IMG/VR virus record: IMGVR_UViG_3300013099_000018
Location: 40,261-104,260 of that record
DNA: 64,000 nucleotides
Strand: one strand, 5' to 3'
Source: a virus
Part shown: one piece after another, positions 33,993 through 63,490 of the stretch
How the letters are laid out: each line of letters starts with the position of its first letter
Position numbering within the stretch: the stretch's first letter is position 1
Position numbers and translations under genes: made by a program
Notes under the pieces: generated by a model
Told to the model about the DNA's origin: nothing
Databases searched by the model: none
What the model saw: the letters and a program-made list of their open reading frames with translations, nothing else

Positions 33993-34361
33993 ATGCCATA
34001 TAGGGACTTTACGGACAGGGTAGAGAACTATAACCTTGCAGTTATACCAGACGTAGTCAAGACCAAGTTCGAGACTAGAAAGAACAAGATGGTTCAGTTG
34101 CAACAGAGAGGACAGGCAACACTAACCGACATGGAAAAGAAGGTCAGAGACATCCTTGACGAGAACGGAATCTTCGGAAACTTCAGAATTCCTTACTTGA
34201 ACTTGGCAAGAGCCTTATTCAGAGCAAAGGGACACCAGAGTGGTCTTGCTCTACAGAAGATTGCCAATGGTTGGAAGCAGAAGGCAGTTGCTGAAGGCTT
34301 AGACCCAGACATTGTTGACAAGATTATCGAAGTAGTCATTGGTGCAACAGCATACAGCTAA
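33993..34361 (+). CDS. major capsid protein, SIRV2-type (Adnaviria) helical fold
   Basis: VRDILDENGIFGNFRIPYLNLARAL...GLDPDIVDKII matches the rudivirus MCP pattern as recalled; 122 aa; own BRE/TATA and tandem RBS; adjacent glycosyltransferase. Confidence 0.8.
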   Translation: MPYRDFTDRVENYNLAVIPDVVKTKFETRKNKMVQLQQRGQATLTDMEKKVRDILDENGIFGNFRIPYLNLARALFRAKGHQSGLALQKIANGWKQKAVAEGLDPDIVDKIIEVVIGATAYS

Positions 34362-34468
34362 AGTCTAAATAATTCCACTTAATTACTCAAGATTTAATTT
34401 CTTTATTTTTTTAATTAAGCAATTTCTTTTAATCATAATAACGCTTATTTATCTGTTTCAACATATGG

Positions 34469-35587
34469 TTGTTAATGGTGGGTAGGGTAGTATATATCTC
34501 ACCTTTGCAAGCAGAATCAATGTTAAACCAAGCTAACTTATTCAAAAAGCTATTGCAAGAATGCGGTTATGATGCAGTATTCAAATCTACTATTACAGTT
34601 GAAGATTTGAACAACGATGATATTGCTGGAGCTATATGGTTTCAATTAGCTACTATCAATTTCATAGGTGATGCTATAGTCCCATACATACTTGGCAAAA
34701 AACCTAAAGTACTATACGTTACAATCGAGGGAGTACCTACAAGGGGAAATGTAGCACATTCAAATCTAAAAAGATGCGAATTCGTAGCTGTAAGCAACTT
34801 TGTTAAAGAATGCTTACAATCAGTAGGGTTGAAAGTTAGAAATGTAGTTCATCATGCCATCGACTGGAAACTCTGTGGTGAAATCCACAAGAAGAACATA
34901 ATCCAAAGAAGGCAAATCCAACAATACGCAAAAGACAGAGTTAAGTTCATAGTAGTTGCGAGAGATGACCCTCGCAAAAACCTTAAAGGGTTAGCAGAAG
35001 CTATGAGAATTCTAAATAAGAAGGGTTACGAAAAGGACTATGTAGTATTTTTAATCACCGAAGACTCTGCCAAACAGAAGTTTGAAGGTATAAATAATGC
35101 TGTGTTTATAAAAGGTTTTGGCGGTTCAGCACATGAATTCATTTTAGGCTATATGGCTTGCTGTGATTTCCTCATTCATCCTGCATTCAGTGAAGGTTTT
35201 GGACTTCCAGTCCTTGAGGCAAATGCTGTGAGTAAACCAGTAATACACGTAGATGCTCCCCCAATGAATGAATTTACCTCACCAGATTTCAATTTCATGT
35301 TCAATTACATCGATAAGCAAGCAGTAAAATGTAACATGTATCAATATTGGATATTTCATATCTTCACTCCAGACATGCTCGCCGAAATGATTGCTTACGC
35401 AATTGACATTTACAAAAACCACAAAGACGAATATCAAGAATATTGTACAAAGGCAAGAGAGTGGACAAAGAACTGGGATTATCATGTTAAATATGCCGAA
35501 CTAATGAGAGAACTTAAGTTGGCAATTCCAAGAGATTTAATAGATTATGTAAAGCATGGTTTGGATTGGATAATCGAAATAAAGTGA
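34469..35587 (+). CDS. GT-B (GT4-like) glycosyltransferase
   Basis: AVS, PRKN, EGFGLPVLEA. Confidence 0.92.
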   Translation: MLMVGRVVYISPLQAESMLNQANLFKKLLQECGYDAVFKSTITVEDLNNDDIAGAIWFQLATINFIGDAIVPYILGKKPKVLYVTIEGVPTRGNVAHSNLKRCEFVAVSNFVKECLQSVGLKVRNVVHHAIDWKLCGEIHKKNIIQRRQIQQYAKDRVKFIVVARDDPRKNLKGLAEAMRILNKKGYEKDYVVFLITEDSAKQKFEGINNAVFIKGFGGSAHEFILGYMACCDFLIHPAFSEGFGLPVLEANAVSKPVIHVDAPPMNEFTSPDFNFMFNYIDKQAVKCNMYQYWIFHIFTPDMLAEMIAYAIDIYKNHKDEYQEYCTKAREWTKNWDYHVKYAELMRELKLAIPRDLIDYVKHGLDWIIEIK

Positions 35588-35593
35588 TTTAAT

Positions 35594-36880
35594 ATGATTA
35601 GGAAAGACCCTTTTGAAAGCATAATTGACCGTAAAGAGAAATACATTGATTTTACAACAAGCTTAGACTGGATAAGCTTAAACATGCTTAGATGGGAATT
35701 TAGACTACCGAAAATAGACTTATCTATTGGTTTCAACCTCAGTTTTAATTTCTTGCTTGATTTTTACTTAGCGGTAGATTTACATTTCCCTCTTGATGCT
35801 TTTGACTATCTCAAGTTAGATTTGGATTTAGCAATCGAGTTTAACCTTCCTAAATTTGAGATTGATTTAGCTATGCCTGATTTTTTAGTTGATTGGCAAC
35901 CAATACCCAAAGCTTACTATGGTAAAACGAAATACAATCAAGGAGTTTATGACCCTCCAGAAATACTCTGGAAAGACCTTGCAAGGTTTATTTGGAACAT
36001 GAGATATCAAACTACTGAGAAGAGCATTCCCGCTTATAAGAAAGTAAGCCAAGCACTAAAAAACTACTTAGAGGCTCACAAGGAAATTCTGTCAAAGAAA
36101 GGTGTAAGTAGTGGTTACATTGATGCAATGCTTGAAACACTAATGAAAGTAGAAGGTAAAATATTGAATTGTTCTTATGTTGGATTCACAGTAGTAGGAG
36201 TTGCCAAAGTCATGAAACCAATCAAAAGAAGACGTTACAAGATGGCTTTAGGTAAAATGAGATATATAGATGACTTCAAGACAGAAAGAACAATCTACAC
36301 CAAATTCCCTTATGAAACCCAAGTAAACTACGCAAGAGTGAATTATGCCAGAGTAATACCTAAAGAGAAGGAGTACAAGGAGAAGCATCTGAGACCTCTA
36401 TCCAAAACACTCGCTTGGAAAGTTAAATTCTTCAAGCAACGTTCATCAAAGACCCCAATTACAAAAGGTTTAGACGTAGAAGTAAGACCAGAGATAAGAG
36501 AAATTACGAAACACATTCCACCACCAAAGCATACACTATACCAAAGAGTCTTCTTCTTGCAGAAGAGAGATAAGATGAAATGGGAAGGTGGCAAACATCA
36601 AGCAAGGTTACAGAATATTATTGAGCATGTTAAACCTATCCTCAACAAATATGGTGTTCATGGTAATTTCAGATTAGGGTATATAGCATTTGCAAAGGAA
36701 TACGTTTATATGCATTATAAGCCTCATAAAAAACACAAACAATGGAAAAGACTTCTAACGGATGACGATTTAATTCTAAAATACAAAAGAATGGGTTGTG
36801 ATGAACAAATACTCAGAGAAATAATATCTACTGTAAATAAATTCAAGACAGTAGTAGATATTGAAGCATCTCAAAAGTAA
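35594..36880 (+). CDS. putative minor virion protein with C-terminal MCP-like domain
   Basis: C-terminal VKPILNKYGVHGNFRLGYIAFAKE...GCDEQILREI aligns with the MCP. Confidence 0.65.
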   Translation: MIRKDPFESIIDRKEKYIDFTTSLDWISLNMLRWEFRLPKIDLSIGFNLSFNFLLDFYLAVDLHFPLDAFDYLKLDLDLAIEFNLPKFEIDLAMPDFLVDWQPIPKAYYGKTKYNQGVYDPPEILWKDLARFIWNMRYQTTEKSIPAYKKVSQALKNYLEAHKEILSKKGVSSGYIDAMLETLMKVEGKILNCSYVGFTVVGVAKVMKPIKRRRYKMALGKMRYIDDFKTERTIYTKFPYETQVNYARVNYARVIPKEKEYKEKHLRPLSKTLAWKVKFFKQRSSKTPITKGLDVEVRPEIREITKHIPPPKHTLYQRVFFLQKRDKMKWEGGKHQARLQNIIEHVKPILNKYGVHGNFRLGYIAFAKEYVYMHYKPHKKHKQWKRLLTDDDLILKYKRMGCDEQILREIISTVNKFKTVVDIEASQK

Positions 36881-37398: not shown

Positions 37399-38742
37399 GT
37401 CAGCTACCCCGCCCTAAAGGGCGGAGCTTGCTCGACCTCTCCTAACGGAGAGGGAGCATCGGGACGGCTGACAAACGCCCCGTTTTGAAGAGATTTCAAA
37501 ACCCTTAACATAATATTTTTAGCACCGACAATATCTGCATGTTCTTTGAATCCACAATTCTTACATTCGAATTCTTTACCATTTCTATTTTCTTTAGCAG
37601 TGTAACCGCATACTGGACAACTTATTGATGTGCATTGCGGATTCACATAAACTACCTTACTTCCGTAGAGCTTAGCTTTGTACTCGATTAGGGTTTGAAG
37701 CTCTCTGAAACACCACTGGCTAAACAACCTTCTTTTCTCTCCCTTGAACTTAGCGTTGTTTTCTCTGAATTCTCTAATGCCTTCTAAGTCCTCCAAACCG
37801 AAAACACAAGGTGAGTTCTCTACTACAATCTTCTTAGCAACGACATGGAGGAAATTTCTAACCAGCCGTTTCTCGACTCCGCTAAGAGACAACAAACGCC
37901 TCTTAGCGGAGCGAGTGCCTTTAGCCTGAAGCTGTGAGCGTAACTTCTGATAATGGGATTTCAATCTCAAAACTTGTTGAGAGAATTCGATAAGCTTAGA
38001 TTTGCCTAAACTATCATGCAAAGCTACAAAACTATTGGAAGGTTCGTTTATATCAACTCCGACAACCTTCTTAGGCTTGAGTTCCTTATCAGGAACATCT
38101 ACAGATACAATAAGATACCAGAGCTTGTTACTCCTCTCGTAATAAAGAATGGCATCTCCGTAACCGTATTTCTCAATATATTCGTAGTGTTTGTTCCAAC
38201 CATAGTAAGGTATTTTCTTCAATCTTTCACCGATAACCGAGATTGAACAAACTCTTGGATTTAGCTTTAAATCATAGCTCCTTCTTTTAACGAGCTTAAC
38301 AATCAGTTTTTTCCTTCTAATTGGTTTTCCAATCTCTTTATAGAATAGTTCGATTAACTTCTTACGATTTCTCTTCGAGATATTAAATTTCTCAGCTAAC
38401 TGGTTAAAGACAGAATCGTAATGTTGAGCAACCTCTCTGATAACTGAAATAGCAATCTGAGACTGAAAACCATACTTCTCTTTGAGTTTGTAGTATAAAG
38501 CCTTATGCAAACTAATATGGTCAAAAACACGATTGTTAAAAGCGTATTCGCTAATTTCGTTAAATGCATCTCTATACTTTTTGGCTAAATCCAAAATCTT
38601 CTGCTTTTGCTCCTTCGTAAGTTCAAGCTTAAATTTCACAGATATTGTAACCATTCATTGAGTTGTGAAAAATTTAGATATTTAAGTGTTGCGGTACTCC
38701 TCTCCGCTTTGAAAAGCGAAATTTCCGCACCGCTATTATTTT
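37399..38742 (-). mobile_element. IS200/IS605-family TnpB-only (IS1341-like) element, 1344 bp
   Basis: right end CAAGCTCCGCCCTTTAGGGCGGGGTAGCTGAC hairpin; left-end subterminal hairpin; TTCAT immediately 5' of the left end; no TSD; no tnpA. Confidence 0.85.
37404..38654 (-). CDS. tnpB: RNA-guided endonuclease TnpB
   Basis: RuvC D-E-D in GVDIN / LEDL / HADIVGA, CPVC-CKNC Zn finger. Confidence 0.93.
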   Translation of the reverse strand: MVTISVKFKLELTKEQKQKILDLAKKYRDAFNEISEYAFNNRVFDHISLHKALYYKLKEKYGFQSQIAISVIREVAQHYDSVFNQLAEKFNISKRNRKKLIELFYKEIGKPIRRKKLIVKLVKRRSYDLKLNPRVCSISVIGERLKKIPYYGWNKHYEYIEKYGYGDAILYYERSNKLWYLIVSVDVPDKELKPKKVVGVDINEPSNSFVALHDSLGKSKLIEFSQQVLRLKSHYQKLRSQLQAKGTRSAKRRLLSLSGVEKRLVRNFLHVVAKKIVVENSPCVFGLEDLEGIREFRENNAKFKGEKRRLFSQWCFRELQTLIEYKAKLYGSKVVYVNPQCTSISCPVCGYTAKENRNGKEFECKNCGFKEHADIVGAKNIMLRVLKSLQNGAFVSRPDAPSPLGEVEQAPPFRAG

Positions 38743-39271: not shown

Positions 39272-42200
39272 ATGGCAACTGAGGTTGAGGAATTTAACAT
39301 CAATCCACAAATAATCATTCAAGCATTCGATATTGAAAAAACTTTAGAAGAGTTTAGCCTAAGCGATATCGAAGAGTTTTACATTGAATACGGTGGTGTA
39401 ACCGACCCATTAGGACAACTAGCATCGACAGTGCTAAATGCTATTGATAGGGGGTTGTCATCTGTAAAGAATGCTATATTGGGTAAAATCTCTGATGTAT
39501 ATAATACAGTCAGTAAACTACCTGGTAGAATAAGTGATGTTCTTTCAAAATTGGGTAATATAGGAGATGTTATTAATGATATATTAAATACAGTTAAAGG
39601 AATTCCAGGCAGAATAAGCGATGTTTTAAATAAAATTGGTAGTGTTGGTAGTGTTGTAAATTCTATTTTTGAAAGGGTTAAAGAACTTCCAGGCAAGGTG
39701 GGTGAAATATTAAGTAAATTAGGTAATATAGGTTCTACGGTTAAAGACATATTTGATAAGATTAAGGGTATTTATCAAAAAATAGCTGATGGATTTAAGA
39801 ATGCATTAGACAAAATACGAGATATTTACGATAAGATTAAAGAAATACCTCAAAAAATAGCTGATGGGTTTAAAGATGTCTTGAAGAATTTAGGCACTAT
39901 TGTAGACAAAGTCAAAGAAATTCCACAAAAGATAGCTAAAGGGTTTGAAGATGTTGGAAAATCTCTTAACAACATATTCGAGAAGGTAAAAGAGCTACCA
40001 GAGAAAGTCTCTCAAGGATTTGAAGAGGTTTTAAAGAACTTAGGACTTATTGTAGACAAAGTCAAAGATTTACCTCAAAAGATATCCGATGGATTTAGAA
40101 ACATATTAGATAAGGTTCGTGAAATCTTCGACAAAGTCAAAGAGTTACCACAGAAAATATCAGATGGTTTCAAAAACGTTATCGAGAATTTAAGAGGGAT
40201 AATGGATAAAGTCAAGGAGTTACCACAGAAAATAGCTGAAGGTTTTGAAAATGTAGGTAAATCCCTTAGCGGAATAATCGAGGAAGTCAAAAAGATTCCA
40301 GAAAAGATTTCAAGTTTATTTGAAGAAATTAGGAAAAAGTTTGAAGATTTTGGAAAAACTATTGGAGATATTTTCGAAGAGGTTAGAAAAATCCCTGAAA
40401 AGATAGCAAAGGGATTTGAAAATGCCAGTAAAACAATAAATAAGGTAATCGAGGAAGTCAAAAAGATTCCAGAGAAGATAAGTGAAGGATTTGGAGATAT
40501 AATTGAAAAACTTAAAATATTACCAGAATTGCCACAAAAAGTATGGCAATTCATACAACAAAACATCGTTCAACCCCTTGAAGAACATGTCGTAAAGCCT
40601 ATAAAAGCCTTCTTTGAAGACTTATGGGATAAACACATTAAACCATTCTTTGACAAATTAAGGGATATACCAACAAAAATGGCGGAAATCAGCAAAGCAT
40701 TTCAGGGATTCGTCAACCCATTAGTAGGTATAGCACAATTCTTTGACCAAATTAGGCAGAAATTCATCGATTTCATAACTAATATTCCAAATTACATTAA
40801 GTCGATAGCAGATTTCTTTGGCAATATAGCTAAAGACCCGTTGGGTTGGTTCAACGATAATGTAGTAAAGCCTTTAGCAGATGCTTTCAGTGCAATAGGT
40901 AAGTGGATATGGGAACACTTACCAGATTGGCTCAAGAATGCAATAACCACAGTACAAGATTGGTTCTCTGGAGCTAAGGATTGGATAACAAAAGGATGGA
41001 GAGACTTTGTCGATTGGGTTAGTAAGATACCAGAGCATATCCAAAACTTAGGAAACTATATCTATGATAACGCAATTAAACCATTGCAAAATTGGTTAGA
41101 TGAACAAATAATATCGCCATTTAGCGAATATATTGTTAAACCTCTTGGAGATATAGGAGCTAAAGTTTGGCAAACTCTTAGCTCAGCATTTGATAGAATT
41201 AGAAATGCTATAAGTGAATTCTTAAAAGACCCAATAGGTTTCATCGGTGGGATATTTAATTTCTTGATTAGTGGATTAAAGAAAATTGGAGAAGCTATAT
41301 GGGGCGGAATTACATCTGCTGGAGAGTGGTTCGCAAGTAAAGCTACTGAAGCATTCAACGCAATCTTTTCAAAAGTTATCAAACCTATATATGATAGTTT
41401 TGAAAACATAGGTAAATCTATAGTTAGTTTCATAAACAAACCATTCATATCTTTGGTTGGAGCAGTTAAAGGTTTAGCAGATAAAATTGCTAAAGCTACA
41501 GATGAACCTATAACCAAGCTTATTTATGACCTTTTCACACCACTGGTTAGCAATGTTGCAAAAACTATGGAAAATCATGTTATGAAATTAGTTAATAAGC
41601 TTAGTAAAGGTCAATCTGCGGGTGAGGTTATAGAATCACTACAGCTTACTGGATTGCTTTATGGTTCGATAGTTCTCAATCAGTATTTGTTTAGAGCAAT
41701 ATCGTTAGGGTTACATGCTTTAGCTTCAGCTTTTGACAAATACAATTGGGAAATGTTTATTGGATGGAGAGTAAAGGTAAAGGGAGAGCATGGATTCAGA
41801 TTCGTTCCAGCAGGTGTTGGTGTTAGGCAAGCTATAGGAGATTCTACGTTAGTTCAACAAGCAATTCCAATTTACGTTGGATTAAACTTAGGTGGAACTT
41901 TGAGACACATTGCAAAAGAAATGAAAAACTATGCAGATGAGTGGGGTAGAGCAGTTCTATATGGTTATGCAATTTGGCTATCACAACCCATGATGCGTTT
42001 GGCAAGTTCAATGTTTAGAAATATGTTACCTATTGAACTACCGTCATTATCCGAGCTTAGAACTATAACAAGGAGACACATGCCAATCAAAGAGAAATTC
42101 GAACAACACCTAGAAACTATGAGAAGGTATCTTGCGTTATATGGTTACAACGATGAAGTCGTGGCATGGTTGACAACTCCAATAACAGAGAAAGGTTGGT

Positions 42201-45200
42201 TTGTTACAATTGTAGATAGGTTTGGCAAGGAAAGAAAAGTCCCGATAAGCTTACTGTATGAGCTACCGACACCTTCAGATATAGCAAGAATGATGATTCA
42301 TGACCTATTTACACTTCCAGAACAAGAAGAGGTTGCGTTTGAGAGCTTTAAGAAATTGATGGCTATGAAAGGATACAACGAAGACATCGCTAAGCTCTAT
42401 TACTTGCTACACTACAAATATCCAAGCATGAGCGATTTATGGGAATTCACTTGTAGAGTGGTAGCAAAACAAACATGGGTTGAGTATGTTCCTGAACCAG
42501 AGATGGACTTAGGTGCGCCAAATCCGAAATCTCCTGTGCAATTACAAAGCACATATGGGTTAACTAAGTTTACGAGTGAAGAAGTGTGGAATAAATTAAA
42601 GAGTGCAACAGAAAACATTTTGAGACACTATGCAAAGTGGCATGATTATGCTCCATTCACATGGATTAAAGATTGGACAGCAGATAACTTAATTTACATA
42701 GACTTAATGGCTGACATACCACAGAGAATCGATGCAAGATGGATGTATAAGTGGCAAGTCCCTGTTCCCAAAGCGATTTACGATATTACCAATAATGAAT
42801 ACTTTGATGAGAAAGCACTCTTCTTAATTGTAACTTCAAGAGGAATGCATCCCAAATGGATAGAATCTATAGTAATTGCTGAGTGCATGAACGCATTAGC
42901 AGAAGAGAGAACATATGCAAGAACGGGTGTCATCAACGCATTCAAGGAAGGATTTATGCCATTGGATGGATTGACAAAGACACTATCAAACCTCACAACG
43001 ATAAAGATTCTTGATAGAGATGTCCCTGTTAGATTCTTAGAAGGAGAAGTTAAGCTACTTGCATTAAGAGCCAAATATGACAGAGCATTGGACATTCTAA
43101 GGGATTATTTCAAAGATTTACTTAGAGGAGTAACCGAGAACATAATCCCATTCGATGGAATGACTAAAAGCTTAAAAGACGAAATAAATGCAGTAGCTAA
43201 ATCGTTAGGATTAACAAATCTTGCATTAGATGAAGACTATTACAAACTATATCAACCAGTAGCAGACTCTCTCAGAAAGGTAAGAACAATTGAGAGGATA
43301 AGATATTGGTACAGATACATGCTTTACAGAATTCTATATAGATTCTCAGAAGGATTCATGAGTAAAGACGAATTCAACAAAACAATAAACGACATTGTAA
43401 ACAACGCAAAGCTAACTGATGAAGAAAAGAAGGTCTTTGTCGAGATTGCACAACTAATGTATGATGGTTTCTACAAGAAGACTAAAGCAGATGGAATTCT
43501 TAGAAAATTAGCAAGAGGTGTAATAACACATGAACAAGCAAAACAAGAACTAATTAAATTAGGGTTAACTGAGGATTTAGCAGATGCTCTCATAGAGAAG
43601 CATGCCAAAACTTACACATTATCAATCTCGACTCTACTAAGCTATGCTGATGAAGTTTACATTCCAGAGGAGTTACTAATGAAGAAACTTGAGATTCTTG
43701 GAGTTCCACAAGATGAGCGAGAAATTGTCTTACAAGTGTTTAAGATAAGACCAATCAAGGACGAAAGAGCAAAAGCAATCAGAATACAGATTGAGAAATT
43801 TATCGAAGGATACATAGATGAAAACACACTTAGACAAGAGTTAAGTAAACTTGGTAAATTTAAAGAGGAAATTGACCTAATTGTTCAATATGCTAAGGTA
43901 GAAAAAGAAATGGAAATCTACAAACTAAGAATTGATGCTATTCTTAATAAGATAAGAAGAGGAGTATTAACTATCGAAGAGGCTAGGAATGTCCTTAGCA
44001 AATATATAACAGACAAAGATATAGTCGAAGCTCTAATTGAAAAAGCAGTCAGAGTTTATACCTTATCAGTGGCTCAACTATTGAGCTACGCAGAATACGT
44101 AGACATTCCAGAAGAACTGTTAAAGAGGAAATTAGAAATATTAGGTGTTCCAAAAGATGAAATACCCATTATCTTGCAAGTTTTCAGAATAAGACCTCTA
44201 AGAGACGAATATGCTAAGCAAATTTCAGAAACACTTAAGCAATTCGAGGAAGGATACATTGATGAGGAGAAACTTAAGTCCACTCTAAAAGAATTAGGTA
44301 AAAGCGATAAGGAGATTCAAATTCTTGTAACTTTTGCAAAGGCTCGTAGGTGGAGACACAAGGTTGAATACTTTGTGGATGCAATCTTGAACCAGCTAAG
44401 GAGAGGAGCAATTACCATCGACAAGGCTAAAGAAGAGTTGTCGAAATACATCGTGGATGAGAGTCTAATAGATGCGATGATAGAAAAGACTGTAAGAGTT
44501 TACACATTGTCAATACCACAATTACTTAGCTATGCAGAATACGTAGATATTCCAGAGGAATTCATTAAAAAGAAGCTTGAGATTCTCGGAGTTCCAGAGG
44601 ATGAAGTTCCAATTATCTTGCAAGTGTTTAGAATAAGACCACTAAAGGATGAAAGAGCTAAGATGATTAGGAGTGTCATAGATGCATATATCAATGGTTA
44701 TATCTCAAAAGACTTGCTCCAGCAAAACTTAAAGAACTTAGGAAAATCACCAAGGGAAATTCAAATTCTAACAGAATTTGCAGATTTTGAGAAATCCCAA
44801 GCTGAAGCAAAGTTAGCCATAGATGCAATTCTAAACAGATTAAGAAGAGGAGCAATAACACTTGAAGAGGCTAAGAAGGAGCTATCGAAATACATTGTGG
44901 ACAAAGCTCTTATAGATGCTATCATTGAAAAATATGTTAGAACTTCTGTTTGGACACCAGACAAATTGGTTAGCATGGCAGAATATGTACCTATAGATAT
45001 TCAAAAGCTTGTAGATAAAGCAAAGATGTTCGGATATCCAGAGGAAGAAGTAAAATTATATCCAGCATACCTCATAGCAAGAAATCTCAATGAAGAAATT
45101 GGAAGAATAATAACAGAGCTTGTATACCTCTATGTTTACGACATCATTGACGAAGAAACATTGAGAAAAGAGATTGATAAGGTTAGAACTCTAAATGGTG

Positions 45201-53869: not shown

Positions 53870-56038
53870 ATGCCTATAACTGCAGAAATTCAAAGTTATG
53901 ATGTAGCTACTTTACTTGATAGAGCTACTGATAGAGGTATTCATCTAAAAGACCAAGCCAAAGGAACAGATAGGTTAATAGAAAGACATCTTGAAAATGT
54001 AGAAAATGTCATCAATATTCTAATACAGAGGACAAAAGAGTTTAGATACGTAGGTTTTGGCGATTTTGTAAGAGTTAAAGACCAAAACCTTATTGTAGAT
54101 ACTCTTAAACTTCTTGATACTGTTTTACAAGTTTATTATCCTTGTTCTAAATACTCTGAAATTGTACGCAAAATCAGATATGTAACTAAAGATGACTTTA
54201 TCTTACCAGATGACCATAATTTAGTTGTAGATGCGATTAAAAGCGTAAGAGATTGCTTAGCACAAGTAGTACCACAATGGGACTTAGTATCATTAGACAT
54301 GTATATAGGAATGTTAAATTACGTCAAAGAAGAAGACCCTGTCTTATCTTTTCAATACAATGCGAAAATAGATGCACTTAAGAATATTCTAAAGTTCATA
54401 TTCAAATACGTATTTGTAACTACAGAACAAATAGTAGAACTATTTACAGAATATGGTATATCTCTGAGAGTATTAAATATAGAAATTGAACCTTTTATAG
54501 AATTCTCAACGACAACTGAAATCTTAGAATCACTAATCGAAGCTACAATTTCTTATAACTTAACTACGATTTCACTGGATTTATCAAGTATAATAGATAG
54601 TTTAGGCGAAGCAACAACTAAAACCATTGATAGTTTAGACTTGGTAGAAAGCATTGGAGAATTAACCACAGCAATAACCGAAGGATTGGCAGAAATACAA
54701 GGAATTGGTGAAGTTACCATTGAAGTTGTTGAAGGTTTAGCTCCGATAGAATCATCATATGATTTTCCAGAGATAATAGATTTCTTACCAGAAATAATAG
54801 CATCATACGATTTCCCATCAATCATTACTAAGCAATTATCAATCTTAACAGAATACGATTTTCCACCTATCACCACAGAACAACTACAAATGCTAACAGA
54901 ATACGATTTCCCTTCTTACATCACCGAGCAACTACAACCTCAAACCGAATACAGCTACACAATAGAATTCATTGAGAAAGAGATTCATCCAGAGGCTATA
55001 TGTGAAATAGTATATCCCATTATTATCGAAAAAAGTATAGAGCTATTTTCTGAACATGCAGAAACAATAGAAACGGTAGATAAGGAACTTGAGATTGTAA
55101 TTCCATTTGACCTACCACCAACGATAAGCGGTTACACCGAACTATTACTATCATACGATTTCCCATCTTACATTACTGAACAACTCCAAATGCTAACAGA
55201 ATATGACTTTCCTTCGATTTACGATTCAACCGCATTATTAGCTACAACATACGATTTTCCATCTGTTTACGATTTGGAACAACCCATAACAGCAATTGAA
55301 GAACTGACAACGACAACATACGATTTAACCATTCAAGCCTTGCTTGAAATATACTCAACGCTAGAGAGCTACGATTTAGAAACGGTTACACAACTTCTGA
55401 TAGACAAAACCTTAGATAGCTATGACTTGAAAACTATAACTCAACTAATCCTCGACAAATACCTCGAATCGTTAGACTTGGAGATTCTCGGTGCTGAAAC
55501 AGTCATCGAGAAAACCTTAGAAAGCTACGATAAACCACTCGACTTATCATTGTCGATAGATAGAACTACCAAATCTCTCGATGAAACATCGACAGTTCAA
55601 ACCTCTTACGAGTTTGAAATGATATATTGGTTACGTGGTTACAAATACCGTAGAGCTATAACCATAACCAACAACGCTCAAGAAGTAAACGATTACCAAG
55701 TCTTAATAGTTCTAACTCCACAAAACTTCGACTATTCTAAAGCAAAACCAGACGGGAGTGATATTAGGTTCACAAAAGACGATGGCATAACGAAGCTTCC
55801 ATATTGGATTGAGCTTTGGAATCCAAACGGTGAAAGCTGGATTTGGGTTAAGATTGATAACCTTCCATTAGGGGATACTACAATCTACATGTATTATGGC
55901 AATCCCGAAGCTGAAAGCGAAGAGAACCCAGAACAAGTGTTTGATTTCTTTGACCACTTCGATAAGGATACATTAGATAAGAAATGGAAGCTCAAGAAAG
56001 GTCAAGGTGCTGTTATGGCGAGAGTTATAGAGCAATAG
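53870..56038 (+). CDS. acidic repeat protein with C-terminal DUF2341 domain, putative fibre/adhesin
   Basis: YDFP / ESYDL repeats; YRRAITI...DGSDIRF...YWIE...WVK...YMYYGNP. Confidence 0.75.
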   Translation: MPITAEIQSYDVATLLDRATDRGIHLKDQAKGTDRLIERHLENVENVINILIQRTKEFRYVGFGDFVRVKDQNLIVDTLKLLDTVLQVYYPCSKYSEIVRKIRYVTKDDFILPDDHNLVVDAIKSVRDCLAQVVPQWDLVSLDMYIGMLNYVKEEDPVLSFQYNAKIDALKNILKFIFKYVFVTTEQIVELFTEYGISLRVLNIEIEPFIEFSTTTEILESLIEATISYNLTTISLDLSSIIDSLGEATTKTIDSLDLVESIGELTTAITEGLAEIQGIGEVTIEVVEGLAPIESSYDFPEIIDFLPEIIASYDFPSIITKQLSILTEYDFPPITTEQLQMLTEYDFPSYITEQLQPQTEYSYTIEFIEKEIHPEAICEIVYPIIIEKSIELFSEHAETIETVDKELEIVIPFDLPPTISGYTELLLSYDFPSYITEQLQMLTEYDFPSIYDSTALLATTYDFPSVYDLEQPITAIEELTTTTYDLTIQALLEIYSTLESYDLETVTQLLIDKTLDSYDLKTITQLILDKYLESLDLEILGAETVIEKTLESYDKPLDLSLSIDRTTKSLDETSTVQTSYEFEMIYWLRGYKYRRAITITNNAQEVNDYQVLIVLTPQNFDYSKAKPDGSDIRFTKDDGITKLPYWIELWNPNGESWIWVKIDNLPLGDTTIYMYYGNPEAESEENPEQVFDFFDHFDKDTLDKKWKLKKGQGAVMARVIEQ

Positions 56039-56338: not shown

Positions 56339-57916
56339 ATGAACGAGAAGGGGAAGGTTAAGTCCACCTTCATCATAACGAAATTCAAAGACCCTGAAGG
56401 TTTGGTAGAGAGATTCGCAAGGATTGGTAAGCCTTTAGATGTCTTAAAACGAATGTTCGCCAAGTATTTCATTGAAGAGAAAGTCATACATGGTAACATT
56501 TTCCTCAACGAAGGAATAAACCTTATCTGGACAGCAGTCTGTGGTGGTAGTTATACACCATTTGACCATGACCATGCTCACATTGGTGTAGGAGATGGAA
56601 CTCAACCAGCAGATGCAACACAAACGGGGTTACAAGGAACTAACAAATACTACAAAGGTATGGATGAAGGTTATCCACAATATGGAACTGACCAGAAAGC
56701 CGTATTTCGTGCCACTTTTGGTGGAACGGAGGCTAACTTCTGCTACACACCTGACCATGAGGTTCTAACAATCGAAGGATGGAAACCGATTGCAGATGTT
56801 AATATAGGAGACTTAGTAGCAGTCATAAAGCCAAACGGAGCGATAACATATCTACCAGTTGTAGATAAGACAATCTTCCACCACAGAGGTTATATCTACG
56901 AGATAGAGAACGAGAGAGTTAGCTTAGCGGTTTCACCAGAACACAAGGTTTACGTTAGAAACGATTGGTGGAGAAGAAGAGGAGAAGGATTTGACCTCAT
57001 AGAGATAGAAAGGCTTGAGAAGGGAACATGGGAAATGAAAAAAGACGGATTATGGTCTGGATTGAAACCAAGAGAGTTCGTAATAGAAGGAATCCACAGC
57101 AAGTTCCATCCTTGGCTTGAAGATGCTATATATTTACCAGTAGAACCATTCGTAAAGCTCTTAGGATACATATTGAGCGAAGGCTACGTAATGCAAAATT
57201 CAGTAGTAATTTGCCAGAATAAGGACAAGCATCCTGAAATCTACAATGACATCATCGAGACAATCAAGGAGTGTGGATTTACTCCAAAAGTGTATAATGG
57301 TATAATGATATATATAAACGATAAAAGACTCGCTCAATTCATCAAGAAATATTGCTACGTAGATGGAACAAGAGCATACAACAAGAAGATACCAGATTTC
57401 GTCAAGTGGCTAACGCCTGAGCTTATAGAAACATTCATTGATGCTTTCATAAAAGGAGATGGACATTTAAAGGATGGTGTTACACCGATAATCTACACGA
57501 CATCACCATACATTAGAGACGGAATACAAGAATTAGCATTGAAGATAGGTCTATGTGCTGATTGGAAAGCGATTAACAACACAAAGAGCTTCAGCAACAG
57601 AACCAAGTATGTCATTTCAATCGTTAGAAGATACAAGACACCATATGTTGTCGTTAAAAGAGATGACAAAAGGAGAAGAGAGCTAAAGAAGATACCATAC
57701 GATGGGCTATTAGTTGGTATAGCAGTCCCAGAATATCATACTCTCTACGTGAGGAGACACGGAAAGGCAGTCTGGAGTGGAAATTCGTGGAATGAATGGA
57801 CAGTGGCTAATGGTGCTTCAGATGATGCAATAAATCTTAATCGTAAGGTTGAGAGCTTAGGAACGAAAGCAGAAGGAACAACATGGATATTCACTGTTGA
57901 GTTGAGTTTAAGCTGA
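56339..57916 (+). CDS. putative structural protein (177-aa extein) containing an intein
   Basis: HIGVGDGT...ATFGGTEANF|SWNEW...LNRKVESLGTK. Confidence 0.75.
   Translation: MNEKGKVKSTFIITKFKDPEGLVERFARIGKPLDVLKRMFAKYFIEEKVIHGNIFLNEGINLIWTAVCGGSYTPFDHDHAHIGVGDGTQPADATQTGLQGTNKYYKGMDEGYPQYGTDQKAVFRATFGGTEANFCYTPDHEVLTIEGWKPIADVNIGDLVAVIKPNGAITYLPVVDKTIFHHRGYIYEIENERVSLAVSPEHKVYVRNDWWRRRGEGFDLIEIERLEKGTWEMKKDGLWSGLKPREFVIEGIHSKFHPWLEDAIYLPVEPFVKLLGYILSEGYVMQNSVVICQNKDKHPEIYNDIIETIKECGFTPKVYNGIMIYINDKRLAQFIKKYCYVDGTRAYNKKIPDFVKWLTPELIETFIDAFIKGDGHLKDGVTPIIYTTSPYIRDGIQELALKIGLCADWKAINNTKSFSNRTKYVISIVRRYKTPYVVVKRDDKRRRELKKIPYDGLLVGIAVPEYHTLYVRRHGKAVWSGNSWNEWTVANGASDDAINLNRKVESLGTKAEGTTWIFTVELSLS
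56741..57784 (+). mobile_element. Intein 3 (348 aa) with LAGLIDADG endonuclease
   Basis: F|CYTPDHEVLT ... SPEH ... LGYILSEG ... GDG ... VWSGN|S. Confidence 0.9.
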
Positions 57917-58301: not shown

Positions 58302-60593
58302 ATGAAAATCGCATACTATTCAGTAGCACCATTCGTAAGCTCTGGTTTCGGAGTTTGCACTCGCTACTTAGCATATCATCTCGCAAAGAAACACGAAGTG
58401 GACATCTATTCTTACTTTGGTTACGAAGGTGCAGAAATCCCGTTTATGATTGAAGATAGGCAAGTTAAAATCATAGGTGGAAATGGAACATTAGTTCATC
58501 CTGTATTCTTCGAAAGATACAACGAATACGATGTTCAAATATTACACTTTGACGGATGGGTAATCTCAAGGCAAATAGCAAAACTTCAAGATGCCAACAT
58601 CATACATTGGTGTGTTGAAGGTGATACGGAAGTCATAACTCCAAATGGCATCAAAAAGATTAGGGATTTAACTATAGAGGATAGAGTTTTGGGATTTGAT
58701 TTTGAGGTTGGCAAAGTAGTTTGGACAAAAGTCTTAGCAATTCATATTATACCAACGGATGAAGATTTAGTGGTTATAGAGTTTGAAGATGGTTCTAAAT
58801 TGAAATGCACGGAAGACCATGAAATCTATACGATTGATGGTTGGAAGCAAGCCTCAGATTTGAGAGTAGGTGATAGAGTTGTTGGGTTACATATTTATAG
58901 ACCATCGACCAAAATAACTATTGATGAAGAGGAGATGGACAGAGCAAGAAGTGGAATTCTTAAAGAGAAATTATACGAAAATGACTGTAGAGCAAATAGC
59001 AAAAGCATTGAACAGGTCGGAGAAAGCAGTAATCCGCAAAGCAACAAGATTGGGTTTAGTAAAGAGCATGTCGGATTTAATTACAACCAAAGGAACGAAA
59101 ATAGAGCAATCTATTGCGAAAATGGAGAAAGTAATTCAGAATTTAGAAGAGTGGCAAAAGGGTTATCTTGCGGGATTTCTGGATGGAGAGGGGACAATAA
59201 CTATAACTGTGGTGAAACATTACAACAAGCAAAGGAAACCGAGATACTTATTGAATCCTCACATAGCATTTGTGAACACGCACAAAGAAACCATAGAGAC
59301 AATTGCCAAATGGTTGGATGTGAAACATTGGAAAGGACAACGGGAAGGGACAAAAGCGAAGAGACCAATATACAGAATTCAAATTCATGGATACAAAGTT
59401 TACCCAATTCTGAAAGAGTTACGCAAGTATCTAATCACAAAGAGAAAACGTGCAGAGTTGGTGTTGAAATTCTTGGAATCGAGAATGAAACAAAAATACA
59501 AAGATGCATACACGGAAGAGGAATTGAGAATTTGGGAAGAGGTAAAGAAATTACAAACTGCAAGAAGGTCATCAAAATATATCGTGAGAAAAACATCGAA
59601 GGGATTGTATATGATATTACCACAACAACAGGAAACTATTTCGCAAACAAAGTCTTGATTCATAATTGCATCTTAGACCATGACCCTGTCCAAAGGAGTT
59701 ACATACCGATGATGCGTTCCGAAGGTGTAAAACTCCTCGTTCCGATGACCAATTGGGGTAAAAAGATACTTGAACAAAGTAGAGATGTTCCAAAGCACAA
59801 GATTACAGAACCAATACCTCACGGTGCTGACCCAAACATCTACTATCCAGAGAAAGACCCTCAAGTGGATTTCATACCAGATGATATAGATTTCTTTGTC
59901 GTAGCAGTTGTAGATAACAATGGGATAAGAGAGAATGTTCCAGAAATCATAGAGGCTTTCGCTCTCTTCCTAAGAGATGTTGAGCCAAATGCATTTCTCT
60001 ACATTAACACAGAACCGATAAAATACGGTGGATATAACCTCTATGAAATCATAGATGCGATTGAAGATAAATACAACATAAAGGTAAGGGATAAGGTCAT
60101 GTTCAAGGTTACGAATGGTTATCTACCGTCTGAAATAATGAGAAAGCTCTATTGCAAGGCTAATTGCTTAGTAAACACTGTAAAAGGAGGCTCATTTGAG
60201 ATTGTGTTGGTAGAGAGTGGCTTATGCGAAACTCCAGCAATAGCTACGGATTGGGGAGCAACGGGAGAATTGCTTGGCGAAGAAGTCTACGAGATTACAG
60301 CAAATGTAATCTACAAGGAAAGAGGCTTAGGAATCAAACCAGTAGCGTTCATGTGGATGAATAGGACATCCTCAAGACAAGCTGTGCTTAACGTAGAAGA
60401 TATAGCCTTTGCACTCTGGTATTACTACTCGTATCCAGAAAGAGCCAAGAAGCACGGGAGAAACATGAGAAAATGGGTTCTCGAAAACGCAACATGGGAC
60501 ATCGTAGGAGAGAAATGGCTTAAGCTCTTAGACGACATCGAAGAGAATGGCTTTCCAGAGCAAAAAGATATTGAAGTTGTAAGTAATATCTAA
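58302..60593 (+). CDS. GT-B glycosyltransferase with one intein (spliced product about 411 aa)
   Basis: SGFG, PHG, REN, GSFEIVLVES, TPAIAT. Confidence 0.88.
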   Translation: MKIAYYSVAPFVSSGFGVCTRYLAYHLAKKHEVDIYSYFGYEGAEIPFMIEDRQVKIIGGNGTLVHPVFFERYNEYDVQILHFDGWVISRQIAKLQDANIIHWCVEGDTEVITPNGIKKIRDLTIEDRVLGFDFEVGKVVWTKVLAIHIIPTDEDLVVIEFEDGSKLKCTEDHEIYTIDGWKQASDLRVGDRVVGLHIYRPSTKITIDEEEMDRARSGILKEKLYENDCRANSKSIEQVGESSNPQSNKIGFSKEHVGFNYNQRNENRAIYCENGESNSEFRRVAKGLSCGISGWRGDNNYNCGETLQQAKETEILIESSHSICEHAQRNHRDNCQMVGCETLERTTGRDKSEETNIQNSNSWIQSLPNSERVTQVSNHKEKTCRVGVEILGIENETKIQRCIHGRGIENLGRGKEITNCKKVIKIYREKNIEGIVYDITTTTGNYFANKVLIHNCILDHDPVQRSYIPMMRSEGVKLLVPMTNWGKKILEQSRDVPKHKITEPIPHGADPNIYYPEKDPQVDFIPDDIDFFVVAVVDNNGIRENVPEIIEAFALFLRDVEPNAFLYINTEPIKYGGYNLYEIIDAIEDKYNIKVRDKVMFKVTNGYLPSEIMRKLYCKANCLVNTVKGGSFEIVLVESGLCETPAIATDWGATGELLGEEVYEITANVIYKERGLGIKPVAFMWMNRTSSRQAVLNVEDIAFALWYYYSYPERAKKHGRNMRKWVLENATWDIVGEKWLKLLDDIEENGFPEQKDIEVVSNI
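58611..59666 (+). mobile_element. Intein 4 (352 aa): Hint splicing blocks with a non-endonuclease in-frame linker
   Basis: W|CVEGDT ... CTEDH ... VYDITT..GNYFAN.VLIHN|C. Confidence 0.9.
58921..59658 (+). CDS. LAGLIDADG homing endonuclease with N-terminal HTH, nested in the +1 frame of intein 4 (probable start ATG 58924)
   Basis: WTEQEVEFL...IAKALNRS..AV HTH; GYLAGFLDGEGTI; TTTATA box about 25 nt upstream. Confidence 0.88.
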   Translation: MMKRRWTEQEVEFLKRNYTKMTVEQIAKALNRSEKAVIRKATRLGLVKSMSDLITTKGTKIEQSIAKMEKVIQNLEEWQKGYLAGFLDGEGTITITVVKHYNKQRKPRYLLNPHIAFVNTHKETIETIAKWLDVKHWKGQREGTKAKRPIYRIQIHGYKVYPILKELRKYLITKRKRAELVLKFLESRMKQKYKDAYTEEELRIWEEVKKLQTARRSSKYIVRKTSKGLYMILPQQQETISQTKS

Positions 60594-60600: not shown

Positions 60601-60969
60601 ATGACAGTAGTAATAAAAAGCAAAGACATATTAGCTGGAACGGCAACTCCGACAGCATTAGGAGACCCAGTAGCAGTCGTTGATATACCAGACCAACCAG
60701 ACGAATACATCATGGAAGGATACATCGACCTCTCACAGATGCTAACAGGAGATGAAGTAGTCATAGAAGAGTTAATAGCTGTCGATGGAGCAAGCCAAAG
60801 GACATTCATAAGCGTAACGTTCTCTGATACGCAAGATGAACCAATCGTAAGATTCCACTCAAAAACTATCAAACGAGATGCTAAATACAAGGTTCAGCTA
60901 ACTCAAACGAAAGGAACTTTAAGGAAATATCCCTACTATTTTGTGAAATTGAACTTTGGAGTGGTGTGA
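60601..60969 (+). CDS. hypothetical (beta-rich, probably structural) protein
   Basis: 122 aa in late operon. Confidence 0.7.
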   Translation: MTVVIKSKDILAGTATPTALGDPVAVVDIPDQPDEYIMEGYIDLSQMLTGDEVVIEELIAVDGASQRTFISVTFSDTQDEPIVRFHSKTIKRDAKYKVQLTQTKGTLRKYPYYFVKLNFGVV

Positions 60970-60980
60970 GGTGAAAAGCC

Positions 60981-62243
60981 ATGACTGAAATCGTGATGGA
61001 AGCTCATAGAAGAAAAATTCCGATAGACCATCCAGACCGAAGCATAACAAGAGAGAAACTCGAATACCCTACTGAGAATGTCTTTCTGACTTATTTGTCA
61101 GCAATCTCTAAGATTGAACATCACAAAGGTAATGCTGGAAGACCAAGTGCTTATGGTGTTAGAACGGTTGATAGCTTTGCGGACAAAGCTGTTTATAGCT
61201 CTGTTAGAGCTTATGCAGACCAAGGATTATGGGGAAGGTATGTAGATGCCAATAATTGGTATGAGTCTTTCATCAAACAAGCGGAAACTACAAAAGACCA
61301 TAAGATACAGAAAATAGTTGATGGTTCTGGAACAGTTCTTGCTTATGAATCTGTGGACTTGTCAAACTACACTCATCAACTAAAACTAACAATATCTGGA
61401 AGCACTATAAAAAGCACAAGAGACGATGCCTCCAGTCCTCAAATAAGTGCTACCGATACAACATTCACTTCAGGCGGTTTTGGCGGTTTCTCTGCGACCT
61501 CTGAAAAAAATGATATCTTTGGATTCCTTGATATAAGACTCTTACCACCAAGCTCAAAACTACCTTTTGCAAAAGTGATATTGGAAATGGAAATGATAGA
61601 AAATAATGGCATATTTACACCATCTTTTAAACAAGAGCTTGTTGAAATTTCCAAGCTCAAAGGATTACCACCTTTCATGTATAAAGAAGCTAAGAAATAT
61701 GAAATTCTACGGAAGAAAGGCTTTACGGATGAGGAAATTATGATACTGTTTGATTACATTCCTCAACATCAAGTAGATTTAGCTTCAATCACATGGGGAG
61801 CTTTTGAACATAGTAAAGAGTATCCTATTGCCATTATTACAGTGGTAGGAGACAATCCTTACAAGCAAGGAGCAATCCAGAAGCAAATAGCACATGCTAA
61901 GGCTAAAGGCTTGAGAGTTCTAAAACCACCAAAGGATTATAGAGAAGCAATAGAGCAATATCGTAGGTTAAAAGCAGACTTTCCACATTGGGTTGTTGGA
62001 AAGGACAATTGGGCATATCAAACGCTTGGACACGAAATCTTTGACCTATTCCAAGTTGCAGATACATACCATGGTAATATTGTCGAAGGTTACAAGCCAA
62101 ACGCATACAAGAAAGTTCCAGATTGGGAAATGAGAAAAACACTCGCAATGTGGAAAGAAAGGCTAAAGAGGGTTTCAACATTAGTAGAAGAGAGAGACAA
62201 GCACATGAAAAAACTCGAAGAGGTTGAGAAAAAAGGATGGTGA
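60981..62243 (+). CDS. hypothetical protein with central beta-sandwich-like segment
   Basis: 420 aa; ISATDTTFTSGGFG. Confidence 0.7.
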   Translation: MTEIVMEAHRRKIPIDHPDRSITREKLEYPTENVFLTYLSAISKIEHHKGNAGRPSAYGVRTVDSFADKAVYSSVRAYADQGLWGRYVDANNWYESFIKQAETTKDHKIQKIVDGSGTVLAYESVDLSNYTHQLKLTISGSTIKSTRDDASSPQISATDTTFTSGGFGGFSATSEKNDIFGFLDIRLLPPSSKLPFAKVILEMEMIENNGIFTPSFKQELVEISKLKGLPPFMYKEAKKYEILRKKGFTDEEIMILFDYIPQHQVDLASITWGAFEHSKEYPIAIITVVGDNPYKQGAIQKQIAHAKAKGLRVLKPPKDYREAIEQYRRLKADFPHWVVGKDNWAYQTLGHEIFDLFQVADTYHGNIVEGYKPNAYKKVPDWEMRKTLAMWKERLKRVSTLVEERDKHMKKLEEVEKKGW

Positions 62244-62904
62244 ACTTATGCCTCGCCTCGAAATCGGAGAAAGGTCGGAGCGTTGGAGCTTGTCGATGCT
62301 CGATGGAATCCTATTCCCCAAGCTCAGAGCCAAGCATAAGAAGATGTCTCAACTAATCAAAAAGCACTACGATGCTTTTGACACTCTCTACGAACAAGTA
62401 GCCAAAGTTCTCGACGAAAACGGGGTTCACGGTGCAATCAGACCTATCTATAGAGCTTATGCTGAAAGACTCTACAAAGCCAAGCAAATCTACTCTGACA
62501 GAGTTCTTGAGGTTGTAGCTTTCGCTCTCACGGTAGCGTTTACTATATATGGTTGCGATTGGGATGTATTAGTAGAGGTGGCACGTAAGATGAACATCCC
62601 TGTAGGTGGAATGCTAACTTTCACAACTCCGAAATTCAATGTTAAAACGGTTACCCAAGACTATGAAGCTGATGATAGGGATTGCATTCTTGCAGATGCA
62701 TCAGAACAAGAAATAAGGATAACGCTACCTGAAGCTTCCAACGGAGCGGAAATCTATGTGAAAAAGATAGACTCTTCAGATAATGTAGTATGGATTTTGC
62801 CAAGAGACCCAAGCCATGTGGAAGACCAAGTTTACCTCGCTCTTACCGAACAATATGAGAGTGTTCACTTGATGTCTGATGGTAAAAATTGGTTTAAGGT
62901 GTAA
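62224..62904 (+). CDS. MCP-fold paralogue fused to a C-terminal beta domain (probable start 62248)
   Basis: VAKVLDENGVHGAIRPIYRAYAERL...GCDWDVL; C-terminal ITLP...VKKID...LMSDGKNW. Confidence 0.75.
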   Translation: MRKKDGELMPRLEIGERSERWSLSMLDGILFPKLRAKHKKMSQLIKKHYDAFDTLYEQVAKVLDENGVHGAIRPIYRAYAERLYKAKQIYSDRVLEVVAFALTVAFTIYGCDWDVLVEVARKMNIPVGGMLTFTTPKFNVKTVTQDYEADDRDCILADASEQEIRITLPEASNGAEIYVKKIDSSDNVVWILPRDPSHVEDQVYLALTEQYESVHLMSDGKNWFKV

Positions 62905-63490
62905 TACTATGCCAAGAAAACAAGTAGGTGAACATTCTCAAAATTGGGAACTTGCAACAAGGGATGAAATACTATTCCCCAAACTCTCAAGAAAGCACAA
63001 GAAAATGGCTAAACTCATCGCAAGAGCTTATGATAGCTTAGACAGTTTATATGAACATGTCGCCAAAATCCTCGATGAGAATGGTATCTTTGGCTCATAC
63101 AGATTGGCTTACAAAGCCTATGCACAAGAACTATGGAGAATTTGTCAAACTTACTCTGGAAAGGCAAGAGAACTGGAAGCTGAAGCTGTGGCAGTTAAAT
63201 ACTGGTTATATGGTTGCGATGATAAAATCTTATACGATATTGGAAAATTATTCGGATTAGAGGTGTTCAAAATGTTAGTTGAGAAATTTAAAGAAGCGTT
63301 AGAGGAAGCTAAAACGCTTAAAGCTCCAGAAATTTATCAAGACCCTCTAAAATTCGAATTCGAATACGATGAATCTGGAAATATCGTTAAGATAATCGTA
63401 ACAGATAAGATAACTGGTGATGTAAAGACAATTAACTTAAGTTACGATGAGAAGGGTAACTTAATATCAGTAGATGAGGTGAGAGTGTGA
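62879..63490 (+). CDS. MCP-fold paralogue fused to a C-terminal YD-like hairpin domain (probable start 62909)
   Basis: VAKILDENGIFGSYRLAYKAYAQEL...GCDDKIL; YDESGN / YDEKGN. Confidence 0.75.
   Translation: MVKIGLRCNTMPRKQVGEHSQNWELATRDEILFPKLSRKHKKMAKLIARAYDSLDSLYEHVAKILDENGIFGSYRLAYKAYAQELWRICQTYSGKARELEAEAVAVKYWLYGCDDKILYDIGKLFGLEVFKMLVEKFKEALEEAKTLKAPEIYQDPLKFEFEYDESGNIVKIIVTDKITGDVKTINLSYDEKGNLISVDEVRV

Follow-up and report, generated by a model that had tools for sequence, protein, structure and literature searches.

Host recognition and the construction of the virion ends are poorly known for the filamentous viruses of archaea: to our knowledge only the shaft of major capsid protein (MCP) has been solved at high resolution in adnaviruses, and the structures at their termini are described as minor proteins particular to each genus. 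IMG/VR virus record IMGVR_UViG_3300013099_000018, of which we analysed positions 40,261 to 104,260 (the window, 64,000 nucleotides, whose numbering is used throughout), raises the question of why a single virus should encode the domain of its MCP four times, three of them joined to other domains. The window holds a single linear genome of at least 52 kb from an uncultivated adnavirus, a filamentous archaeal virus of a kind known mainly from metagenomes and known here from sequence alone. Its capsid-fold proteins are a plain MCP (P0001), a larger protein with a basic N-terminal region and a C-terminal MCP-like module (P0002), and two tandemly encoded proteins in which an N-terminal MCP anchor is followed by a cargo domain (P0003 and P0004). 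Profile searches and a domain tree indicate that they represent three old, architecture-specific paralogue classes of the SIRV2-type capsid fold. We think there is a reasonable case that P0001 builds the capsid, that P0002 acts at the filament end, and that P0003 and P0004 are lattice-borne anchors displaying exchangeable domains.

Four genes encode an adnaviral capsid domain

An initial annotation had identified four open reading frames (ORFs) with a common capsid motif, and all four are present with clean translations on the forward strand: P0001 (class 1, 122 aa; 33993 to 34361), P0002 (class 2, 428 aa; 35594 to 36880), P0003 (class 3, 218 aa; 62248 to 62904) and P0004 (class 3, 193 aa; 62909 to 63490). 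The starts assigned to the tandem genes, ATG at 62248 and ATG at 62909, agree with those of their relatives, which begin MPR. The four domains align over about 120 residues with eleven invariant columns, and the motif core V..(I/V)L...G(I/V).G..R..Y...A is found in all of them; however, the spacing drawn between its alanine and the following G.D was schematic, the true gap being about 30 residues. When the record is searched with P0001 by tblastn the other three genes are recovered at E values of 2e-11, 3e-9 and 1.6e-4, and a hidden Markov model (HMM) of the four domains, compared with all six-frame ORFs of the window, matches just these four at E values of 1e-44 to 1e-63 (3e-62 for P0003 and 1.4e-63 for P0004, spanning positions 1 to 127/129), the next best match having an E value above 1. 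There are exactly four capsid-domain ORFs, each single-copy in the unit genome.

The 104,260 bp record is a perfect palindrome around its exact middle, and we therefore regard it as one genome assembled twice, head to head. The window equally matches the minus strand of record positions 1 to 64000. The window arms 1 to 11870 and 11871 to 23740 are 100% complementary without a spacer (centre at 11870/11871), and every tblastn match in the record has a mirror copy about the exact midpoint. Each capsid-fold gene thus occurs twice in the record and once in the unit genome, which corresponds to window positions 11871 to 64000 (52,130 bp), and the IMG/VR label 'inverted terminal repeats' is an artefact of the palindrome. 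Because every gene is doubled in this way, the shared motif might be attributed to the duplicated assembly, or simply to chance similarity, but the four copies sit in a single arm, their capsid domains are only 24 to 47% identical to one another, they match with E values of 1e-4 to 1e-63, and each has its own orthologue family in independent metagenomes. The tblastn and HMM values, the metagenome family census and the P0002 homologues described below rule this explanation out, and we give it a negligible probability.

The proposal that all four proteins carry the adnaviral MCP fold is well supported by comparisons with characterised proteins. P0001 matches Pfam PF12193 (Sulf_coat_C) at an E value of 2e-8 with 34.9 bits, above the 25.2-bit cut-off, and an HMM of its plain metagenomic relatives matches the SIRV2 MCP, ORF134, at 4.7e-20 over positions 3 to 118. 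Taken singly, the others fall below the Pfam cut-off (P0002 to PF25647, SFV1_VP4, at 2.5e-4; P0003 and P0004 to PF12193 at 5e-4 and 0.01), and the four-domain profile matches the solved MCPs of SFV1, SSRV1, AFV1 and SIRV2 in the PDB (6d5f, 1.9e-9; 6wq0, 1.4e-4; 5w7g/3fbz, 6e-4; 3j9x, 6e-3). A profile of class 3 alone also ranks four adnaviral MCPs first in the PDB (6d5f, 0.0019; 6wq0, 0.0051). For P0001, P0003 and P0004 the MCP fold is predicted from this homology.

The C-terminal domain of P0002 aligns with the plain MCPs in hhalign with a probability of 99.5% (E 2.9e-22), and a structural model of the protein was also obtained. Prediction without an alignment was not usable (pLDDT 42.5), but the AlphaFold2 (AF2) model built with 60 homologues has a pLDDT of 87.6 and a pTM of 0.86. 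In a comparison with 48,161 PDB representatives the seven top-ranking chains all belong to adnaviral MCPs (Z scores of 10.1 for 3fbz, 9.0 for 6wq0, 8.9 for 5w7g, 8.8 for 6wq2, 8.7 for 3f2e, 8.3 for 3fbl and 6.4 for 6d5f), the matches spanning P0002 residues from about 266/303 to 420-427. Foldseek places AFV1 ORF140 first with a probability of 1.00, and the high-probability matches in BFVD are to MCPs only. The modelled helices (residues 325-353, 357-371, 380-387, 390-399 and 404-427) give P0002 a predicted arm-plus-four-helix-bundle MCP fold, and the helical bundle of SIRV2, on which the initial annotation's proposal depended, is thus present in the model.

Three classes of capsid-fold proteins

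A profile built from the four window proteins was searched against 1.84 billion protein representatives and matched 416 clusters at E values of 1e-3 or below. In the domain-scored set, formed by the top matches and the window's own four proteins, plain MCPs number 53, N-terminal-anchor proteins 50 and C-terminal-fold proteins 45, and a further two are tandem MCP-MCP fusions. The N-anchor proteins range in total length from 155 to 782 aa, and the C-terminal-fold proteins have an extension of about 250 to 340 aa preceding the MCP domain. A tree of 152 domains largely follows these architectures, with P0001 in the plain-MCP group, P0002 in a 45-row clade that includes 43 C-terminal-fold proteins (SH-aLRT 99), and P0003 and P0004 in a 59-row group that includes 44 N-terminal anchors. 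Within the latter, P0003 and P0004 lie in a six-row clade (support of 98) alongside one protein that bears a beta-propeller and one that has no cargo.

The two tandem fusions, P0006 (258 aa) and P0154 (252 aa), are single chains of two MCP domains, similar to the 'single-gene capsomer' described in Demeterviridae and PBV300. The halves of P0006 are two class 3 domains that are 67% identical, and this natural fusion suggests that class 3 domains may pair with one another. A further match, P0121 (1442 aa), has six weak stretches; it does not appear to belong to the family and was set aside.

Cargo domains of the class 3 proteins

P0003 consists of an anchor (residues 1 to 122; 62248 to 62613) and a 96-residue acidic cargo (62614 to 62901), and P0004 of an anchor (62909 to 63274) followed by a linker helix and two YD-type hairpins (63275 to 63487). 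The two anchors are 47% identical and their N-terminal arms each have ten lysines and arginines within the first 45 residues, compared to eight in P0001; the cargo domains, with net charges of −9 and −6, are unrelated. Both genes lie inside an operon and have weak ribosome-binding sites, and the P0004 gene begins 4 nt past the P0003 stop codon without a promoter-like box of its own. They are part of a run of same-strand ORFs, the last of which has an N-terminus resembling beta-helix proteins, as judged by eye only.

The initial annotation described the P0004 cargo as YD-like and the P0003 cargo as a beta domain, and these descriptions fare differently. PDB Rhs proteins match the P0004 cargo at E values of 2.7e-5 to 7e-5 (the Rhs/YD protein 8h8b at 2.7e-5 and Tse15 at 6.5e-5), these being summed weak repeat matches, and there are two YDxxGN motifs, FEYDESGN and LSYDEKGN. 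The Pfam RHS_repeat match has an E value of 0.033, under the cut-off, and the RHS/YD likeness is one of motif only, because two hairpins cannot form an RHS shell. For the P0003 cargo there is no Pfam or PDB sequence match to a beta domain or to anything else. A protein language model places it near small Caudoviricetes proteins, including one cluster of which 13% are annotated as Phage_depo_C, and we treat this as a lead only; among the representatives the same cargo type is present otherwise only in P0007 and P0046. DUF6385 has no match at E values of 0.1 or below in P0003 or P0004, and none at 0.001 or below in 55 N-anchor relatives.

As the initial annotation anticipated, the fold is a conserved module joined to varied domains: the cargos of the 55 N-anchor proteins fall into at least 26 unrelated clusters, among them right-handed beta-helices (reaching 650 aa), DUF2341, beta-propellers and YD hairpins. 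DUF2341 is fused to an MCP anchor in P0026 and P0133, and is also found at the C-terminus of a 722-aa protein encoded elsewhere in the window (53870 to 56038; E 1e-24), so that cargo domains also exist as separate proteins.

Anchors and cargos have different histories. The anchor of P0211 is 95% identical to that of P0004, and those of P0192 and P0193 are 84% and 80% identical to it, yet all three carry unrelated cargos; conversely, P0209 has a cargo that is 96% identical on an anchor that is 66% identical. P0009, whose anchor is the nearest relative of the P0003 anchor outside of its orthologues, bears a beta-propeller. Near-identical anchors with unrelated cargos, together with the reverse case, point to the swapping of cargo domains as cassettes, in the manner of receptor-binding proteins. 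The YD cargo of the P0004 type recurs in two metagenome loci (L033 and L035) on anchors only 37 to 41% identical, suggesting that this version may be ancestral or structurally fixed, and P0003 may be a lineage-specific duplicate that has acquired a new cargo.

The MCP-glycosyltransferase-P0002 module

The gene order at the left-hand pair of capsid-fold genes is P0001 (33993), a GT4 glycosyltransferase (GT; 34469 to 35587, forward strand) and P0002 (35594). The glycosyltransferase is identified by matches to Pfam Glycos_transf_1 (E 1.1e-14) and to a PHROG glycosyltransferase family (E 1.5e-25). The P0002 protein has a basic N-terminal region of about 265 aa with a net charge of +17, followed by the MCP-like module (residues about 266 to 428; 36389 to 36877). 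PHROGs contain no family for the P0002 clade, and the N-terminal region has no match in the Atlas. There are 37 full-length P0002 homologues, at 32 to 91% identity, and P0002 homologues are encoded in 30 metagenome loci.

Eighteen of these loci have at least 2 kb of flank on the relevant side, and 17 of them have an MCP-domain ORF (about 122 aa) at a distance of roughly 1.5 to 3 kb from the P0002 homologue and in most cases on its strand. In the remaining locus, L035, the sole MCP-domain ORF found nearby encodes a 216-aa class 3 protein with cargo. In L033 the gap between the MCP and the P0002 homologue is occupied by a 363-aa ORF, the assignment of the gap ORF as a glycosyltransferase having been established in the window only; L033 and L035 both also hold a class 3 gene. 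A tblastn search of a phage collection with P0001 and P0002 returned a weak match to the SBFV2 MCP (4e-3) and noise only.

Just downstream of the module, on the reverse strand, is a TnpB/Cas12f-like gene (37404 to 38654; OrfB_IS605 plus TNB domain, E 1e-21).

Relationship to known viruses

Classified adnaviruses have genomes of 17.6 to 41.5 kb and one or two MCPs (ICTV 2025 profile), the latter in agreement with the initial annotation, so that the genome described here, at 52 kb or more, exceeds their upper bound of 41.5 kb. Reuse of the MCP fold is already known from PBV300, Chiyouviridae and the Baiyanviruses in papers of 2025 and 2026. PBV300 (Ahmunviridae) encodes a plain MCP (UYL64989.1), an MCP extended at its C-terminus by an eight-strand beta domain (UYL64970.1) and a 'two-MCP fusion' beside a glycosyltransferase (UYL64987.1; bioRxiv 10.1101/2025.08.23.671958; PMC9894754). 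To judge from the published description, it has the same three architectures in one genome, with a larger MCP-fold protein by the glycosyltransferase and a distant gene that joins an N-terminal MCP fold to a beta cargo. However, it has one cargo-bearing copy rather than two tandem copies with unrelated cargos, the genome described here lies above the range of classified adnaviruses, and there is only a weak indication of a second MCP-like half in P0002 (residues 149 to 188; hhalign probability 43%).

An MCP-like minor structural protein (MSP) is common to rudi-, ahmun- and baiyanviruses (Microbiome 2026, PMC13700489), and a protein that joins an N-terminal MCP-like domain to a DUF6385 jelly-roll is described in BaiyanV2, Chiyouviridae and Ahmunviridae (PMC13700489). 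Baiyanviruses share with the window the order MCP-GT-MSP and a minor protein with an MCP-related domain, and BaiyanV2 also shares a second protein whose N-terminal domain is MCP-like and which has a C-terminal beta cargo. The window differs in that its cargos are YD hairpins and the P0003 domain, without DUF6385, and in the diversity and exchange of cargos, which are not described in the Baiyanvirus paper.

SIRV2 has a homodimeric MCP (ORF134) that is homologous to the plain-MCP family and followed by a glycosyltransferase (ORF335), and the fold-back assembly of the record would fit rudivirus-like hairpin ends. In contrast, the MCP-domain HMMs (mcp.hmm and plain.hmm) find only ORF134 in SIRV2, whose minor structural proteins are ORF488, ORF564 and ORF1070. 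The rudiviral minor structural protein discussed in PMC13700489 is cited there as Swiss-Prot Q8QL30.

Phage receptor-binding proteins offer a further parallel, having a constant N-terminal anchor and swapped C-terminal modules that include beta-helix and beta-propeller families. However, the anchor here is a capsid fold in a helical nucleoprotein filament and has no homology to fibre anchors, and the likeness would be one of function only. In the literature searched there is no earlier description of the three-clade structure, the breadth of cargos, cassette exchange or a tandem pair in one genome; since the basic reuse of the MCP fold has been published, the value of the present observations lies in their scale, the division into three classes and the evidence that cassettes are exchanged.

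Proposed roles in the virion

P0001 is the best candidate for the actual capsid builder, most likely as a DNA-wrapping homodimer like that of rudiviruses, and the neighbouring GT4 enzyme probably glycosylates it. Its gene has its own B recognition element (BRE)/TATA-like box and a long GGAGGTGA-type ribosome-binding (Shine-Dalgarno) stretch, and the protein is 54 to 64% identical in relatives whose P0002 proteins and class 3 anchors are 34 to 41% identical. These strong expression signals and higher conservation, set against the operon-embedded P0003 and P0004 genes, argue for P0001 as the major protein.

In the SIRV2 structure the helical bundle lies outside, so that a C-terminal cargo would be exposed, and an addition of 265 aa at the N-terminus would fit only at a helix end. 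MCPs of this type have a DNA-wrapping arm and a C-terminal bundle (PMC7189273). P0002 probably corresponds to the MCP-like minor structural protein reported beside the MCP-GT pair in ahmunviruses and baiyanviruses and, according to the same authors, in rudiviruses. Its basic N-terminal region would be directed toward the DNA side, with docking probably only where the helix ends, consistent with an end-cap, nucleation or adaptor role. P0003 and P0004 appear to keep the complete basic DNA-binding arm and four-helix bundle, and may be built into the nucleoprotein lattice in a few copies, a plausible form being a P0003:P0004 heterodimeric capsomer of the kind the initial annotation envisaged. Co-assembly, capping or display and the heterodimer have indirect support from the intact basic arms, the acidic cargos, the 4-nt gap between the two genes and the P0006 fusion. 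Their acidic C-terminal cargos would face the exterior of the filament, displaying binding modules; exchange of these by recombination between viruses suggests that they most likely mediate attachment to the host surface or to other parts of the virion. The data show the homology, the P0002 fold, the three classes, the synteny and the exchange of cargos. The anchor-plus-cargo reading is plausible, and capping, display and heterodimer formation are the mechanisms we infer from it, along with presence in the virion, copy number, position and binding function. The broader proposal, that across a large branch of Adnaviria, most of it unclassified, the capsid fold is a universal plug for binding domains in an A-DNA helix, with heterodimer capsomers and host-range cassettes passed between viruses, is more tentative and we hold it to be somewhat doubtful.

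Several observations weigh against these assignments. Neither sequence comparison nor BFVD structures tie the P0002 family to SIRV2 ORF488 or to a rudiviral minor protein: its HMM searched against all SIRV2 ORFs, including ORF488, gives a best E value of 0.04-0.17, hhalign with ORF488 has a probability of 0.2%, and BFVD links no rudiviral minor protein to P0002. A class 3 member without any cargo exists (P0010, 133 aa), and the conservation of the YD cargo across distant anchors is easier to reconcile with a fixed structural contact than with a receptor binder that evolves fast. Some rudiviruses have a second MCP paralogue that is reported not to enter virions (bioRxiv 10.1101/2023.08.24.554615). 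Finally, the domain tree is based on 128 columns and is poorly resolved with many open forks, and the census is biased to relatives of the window's four proteins, from which its profile was built.

The cargo-less class 3 proteins, which are of MCP size, are also among the observations that would favour P0003 and/or P0004 as a stoichiometric second MCP, with the filament wholly coated in small display domains, either through a P0001 plus class 3 heterodimer or through a P0003:P0004 shaft (compare MCP1/MCP2 of lipothrixviruses). Most adnaviruses use heterodimers, the PBV300 MCP-plus-beta protein is counted as a second MCP in the ANME-1 paper, the class 3 anchors have full-length basic arms, domains of 70 to 96 aa would fit each capsomer by our own geometric estimate, and the cargo-bearing class 3 protein of L035 is the sole MCP-domain ORF near the homologue of the 428-aa protein. 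We nonetheless consider a second MCP unlikely. The window has two different class 3 genes, distant from the MCP gene and in an operon, which lack the strong expression signals of P0001. Evolution has been much faster in the anchors than in P0001, and cargos turn over to an extreme degree, the 650-aa beta-helix domains among them. No class 3 gene is seen in three loci (L030, L034 and L024) that each cover a 20-23 kb contig entirely or for the most part.

The rudiviral paralogue reported outside virions raises a different possibility, that the extra copies act within the cell as assembly regulators, DNA cappers or decoys, or competitors of other viruses, and the AOA preprint (bioRxiv 10.1101/2025.08.23.671958) suggests that some copies may be inactive. 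However, the three classes are kept with intact fold signatures over hundreds of 50%-identity clusters, YD hairpins, beta-helices, beta-propellers and DUF2341 are typical of extracellular binding proteins, P0003 and P0004 share their same-strand run with the ORF whose N-terminus by eye resembles beta-helix proteins, and the class 2 counterpart is named a minor structural protein in the Asgard paper (PMC13700489). A purely intracellular function thus seems improbable to us.

If P0003 and P0004 do act as lattice-borne display anchors, MCP-fold anchors with exchangeable modules would help to explain the moves of adnaviruses among Sulfolobales, ANME-1, Bathyarchaeia and Asgard archaea, and would represent a receptor-binding system built on the capsid protein itself, distinct from rudiviral terminal fibres. 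The anchor-plus-cargo proteins would also be small expressible targets for in vitro assembly or binding tests that require no host culture.

The virus genome and its other genes

The final ORF (63773 to 64000) is open at the end of both window and record, so that the right genome end is missing and the genome is somewhat longer than 52,130 bp. An identical copy of P0004 is present on a 54,350-bp contig, suggesting a true genome length near 54 kb, and Samediviridae, with genomes of 12 to 22 kb, do not fit and were rejected as an assignment. Degenerate repeat arrays flank the palindrome centre (11066 to 11283 and 12458 to 12675), and a fold-back of this type would be expected from reads across a covalently closed hairpin end, or from a head-to-head replicative dimer. 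The GC content is 30 to 39% along the window, which contains no tRNA genes.

Searches of IMG/VR for related loci with queries A1 and A3 found no relatives, and query A4 had no match in GTDB genomes. Query A3 matched two short contigs only in GTDB metagenome-assembled genomes (MAGs), both of which are related-virus fragments. One (L041; JAEOSG010000253.1) is in a Candidatus Baldrarchaeota MAG and is 83% identical to the P0002 C-terminus; this relative of about 3 kb is a weak hint as to the host. The other (L040; DQTF01000125.1) is in a MAG labelled Crocinitomicaceae and is probably mis-binned.

Inteins with LAGLIDADG or Hint signatures interrupt several genes of the structural module, including GT4 genes (46248 to 49796, 56339 to 57916 and 58302 to 60593), and a 1182-aa ORF appears to hold two of them. 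Genes at 15521 to 17407 and 26281 to 26922 encode a class-II glutamine amidotransferase, a phiEco32-type COOH-NH2 ligase and a thymidylate-synthase homologue. They could form a DNA base-modification module, which is not known to occur in characterised adnaviruses. A 2012-aa protein (39272 to 45310) has a long N-terminal coiled coil (residues about 50 to 520), and may correspond to ORF1070, the terminal-fibre protein of rudiviruses.

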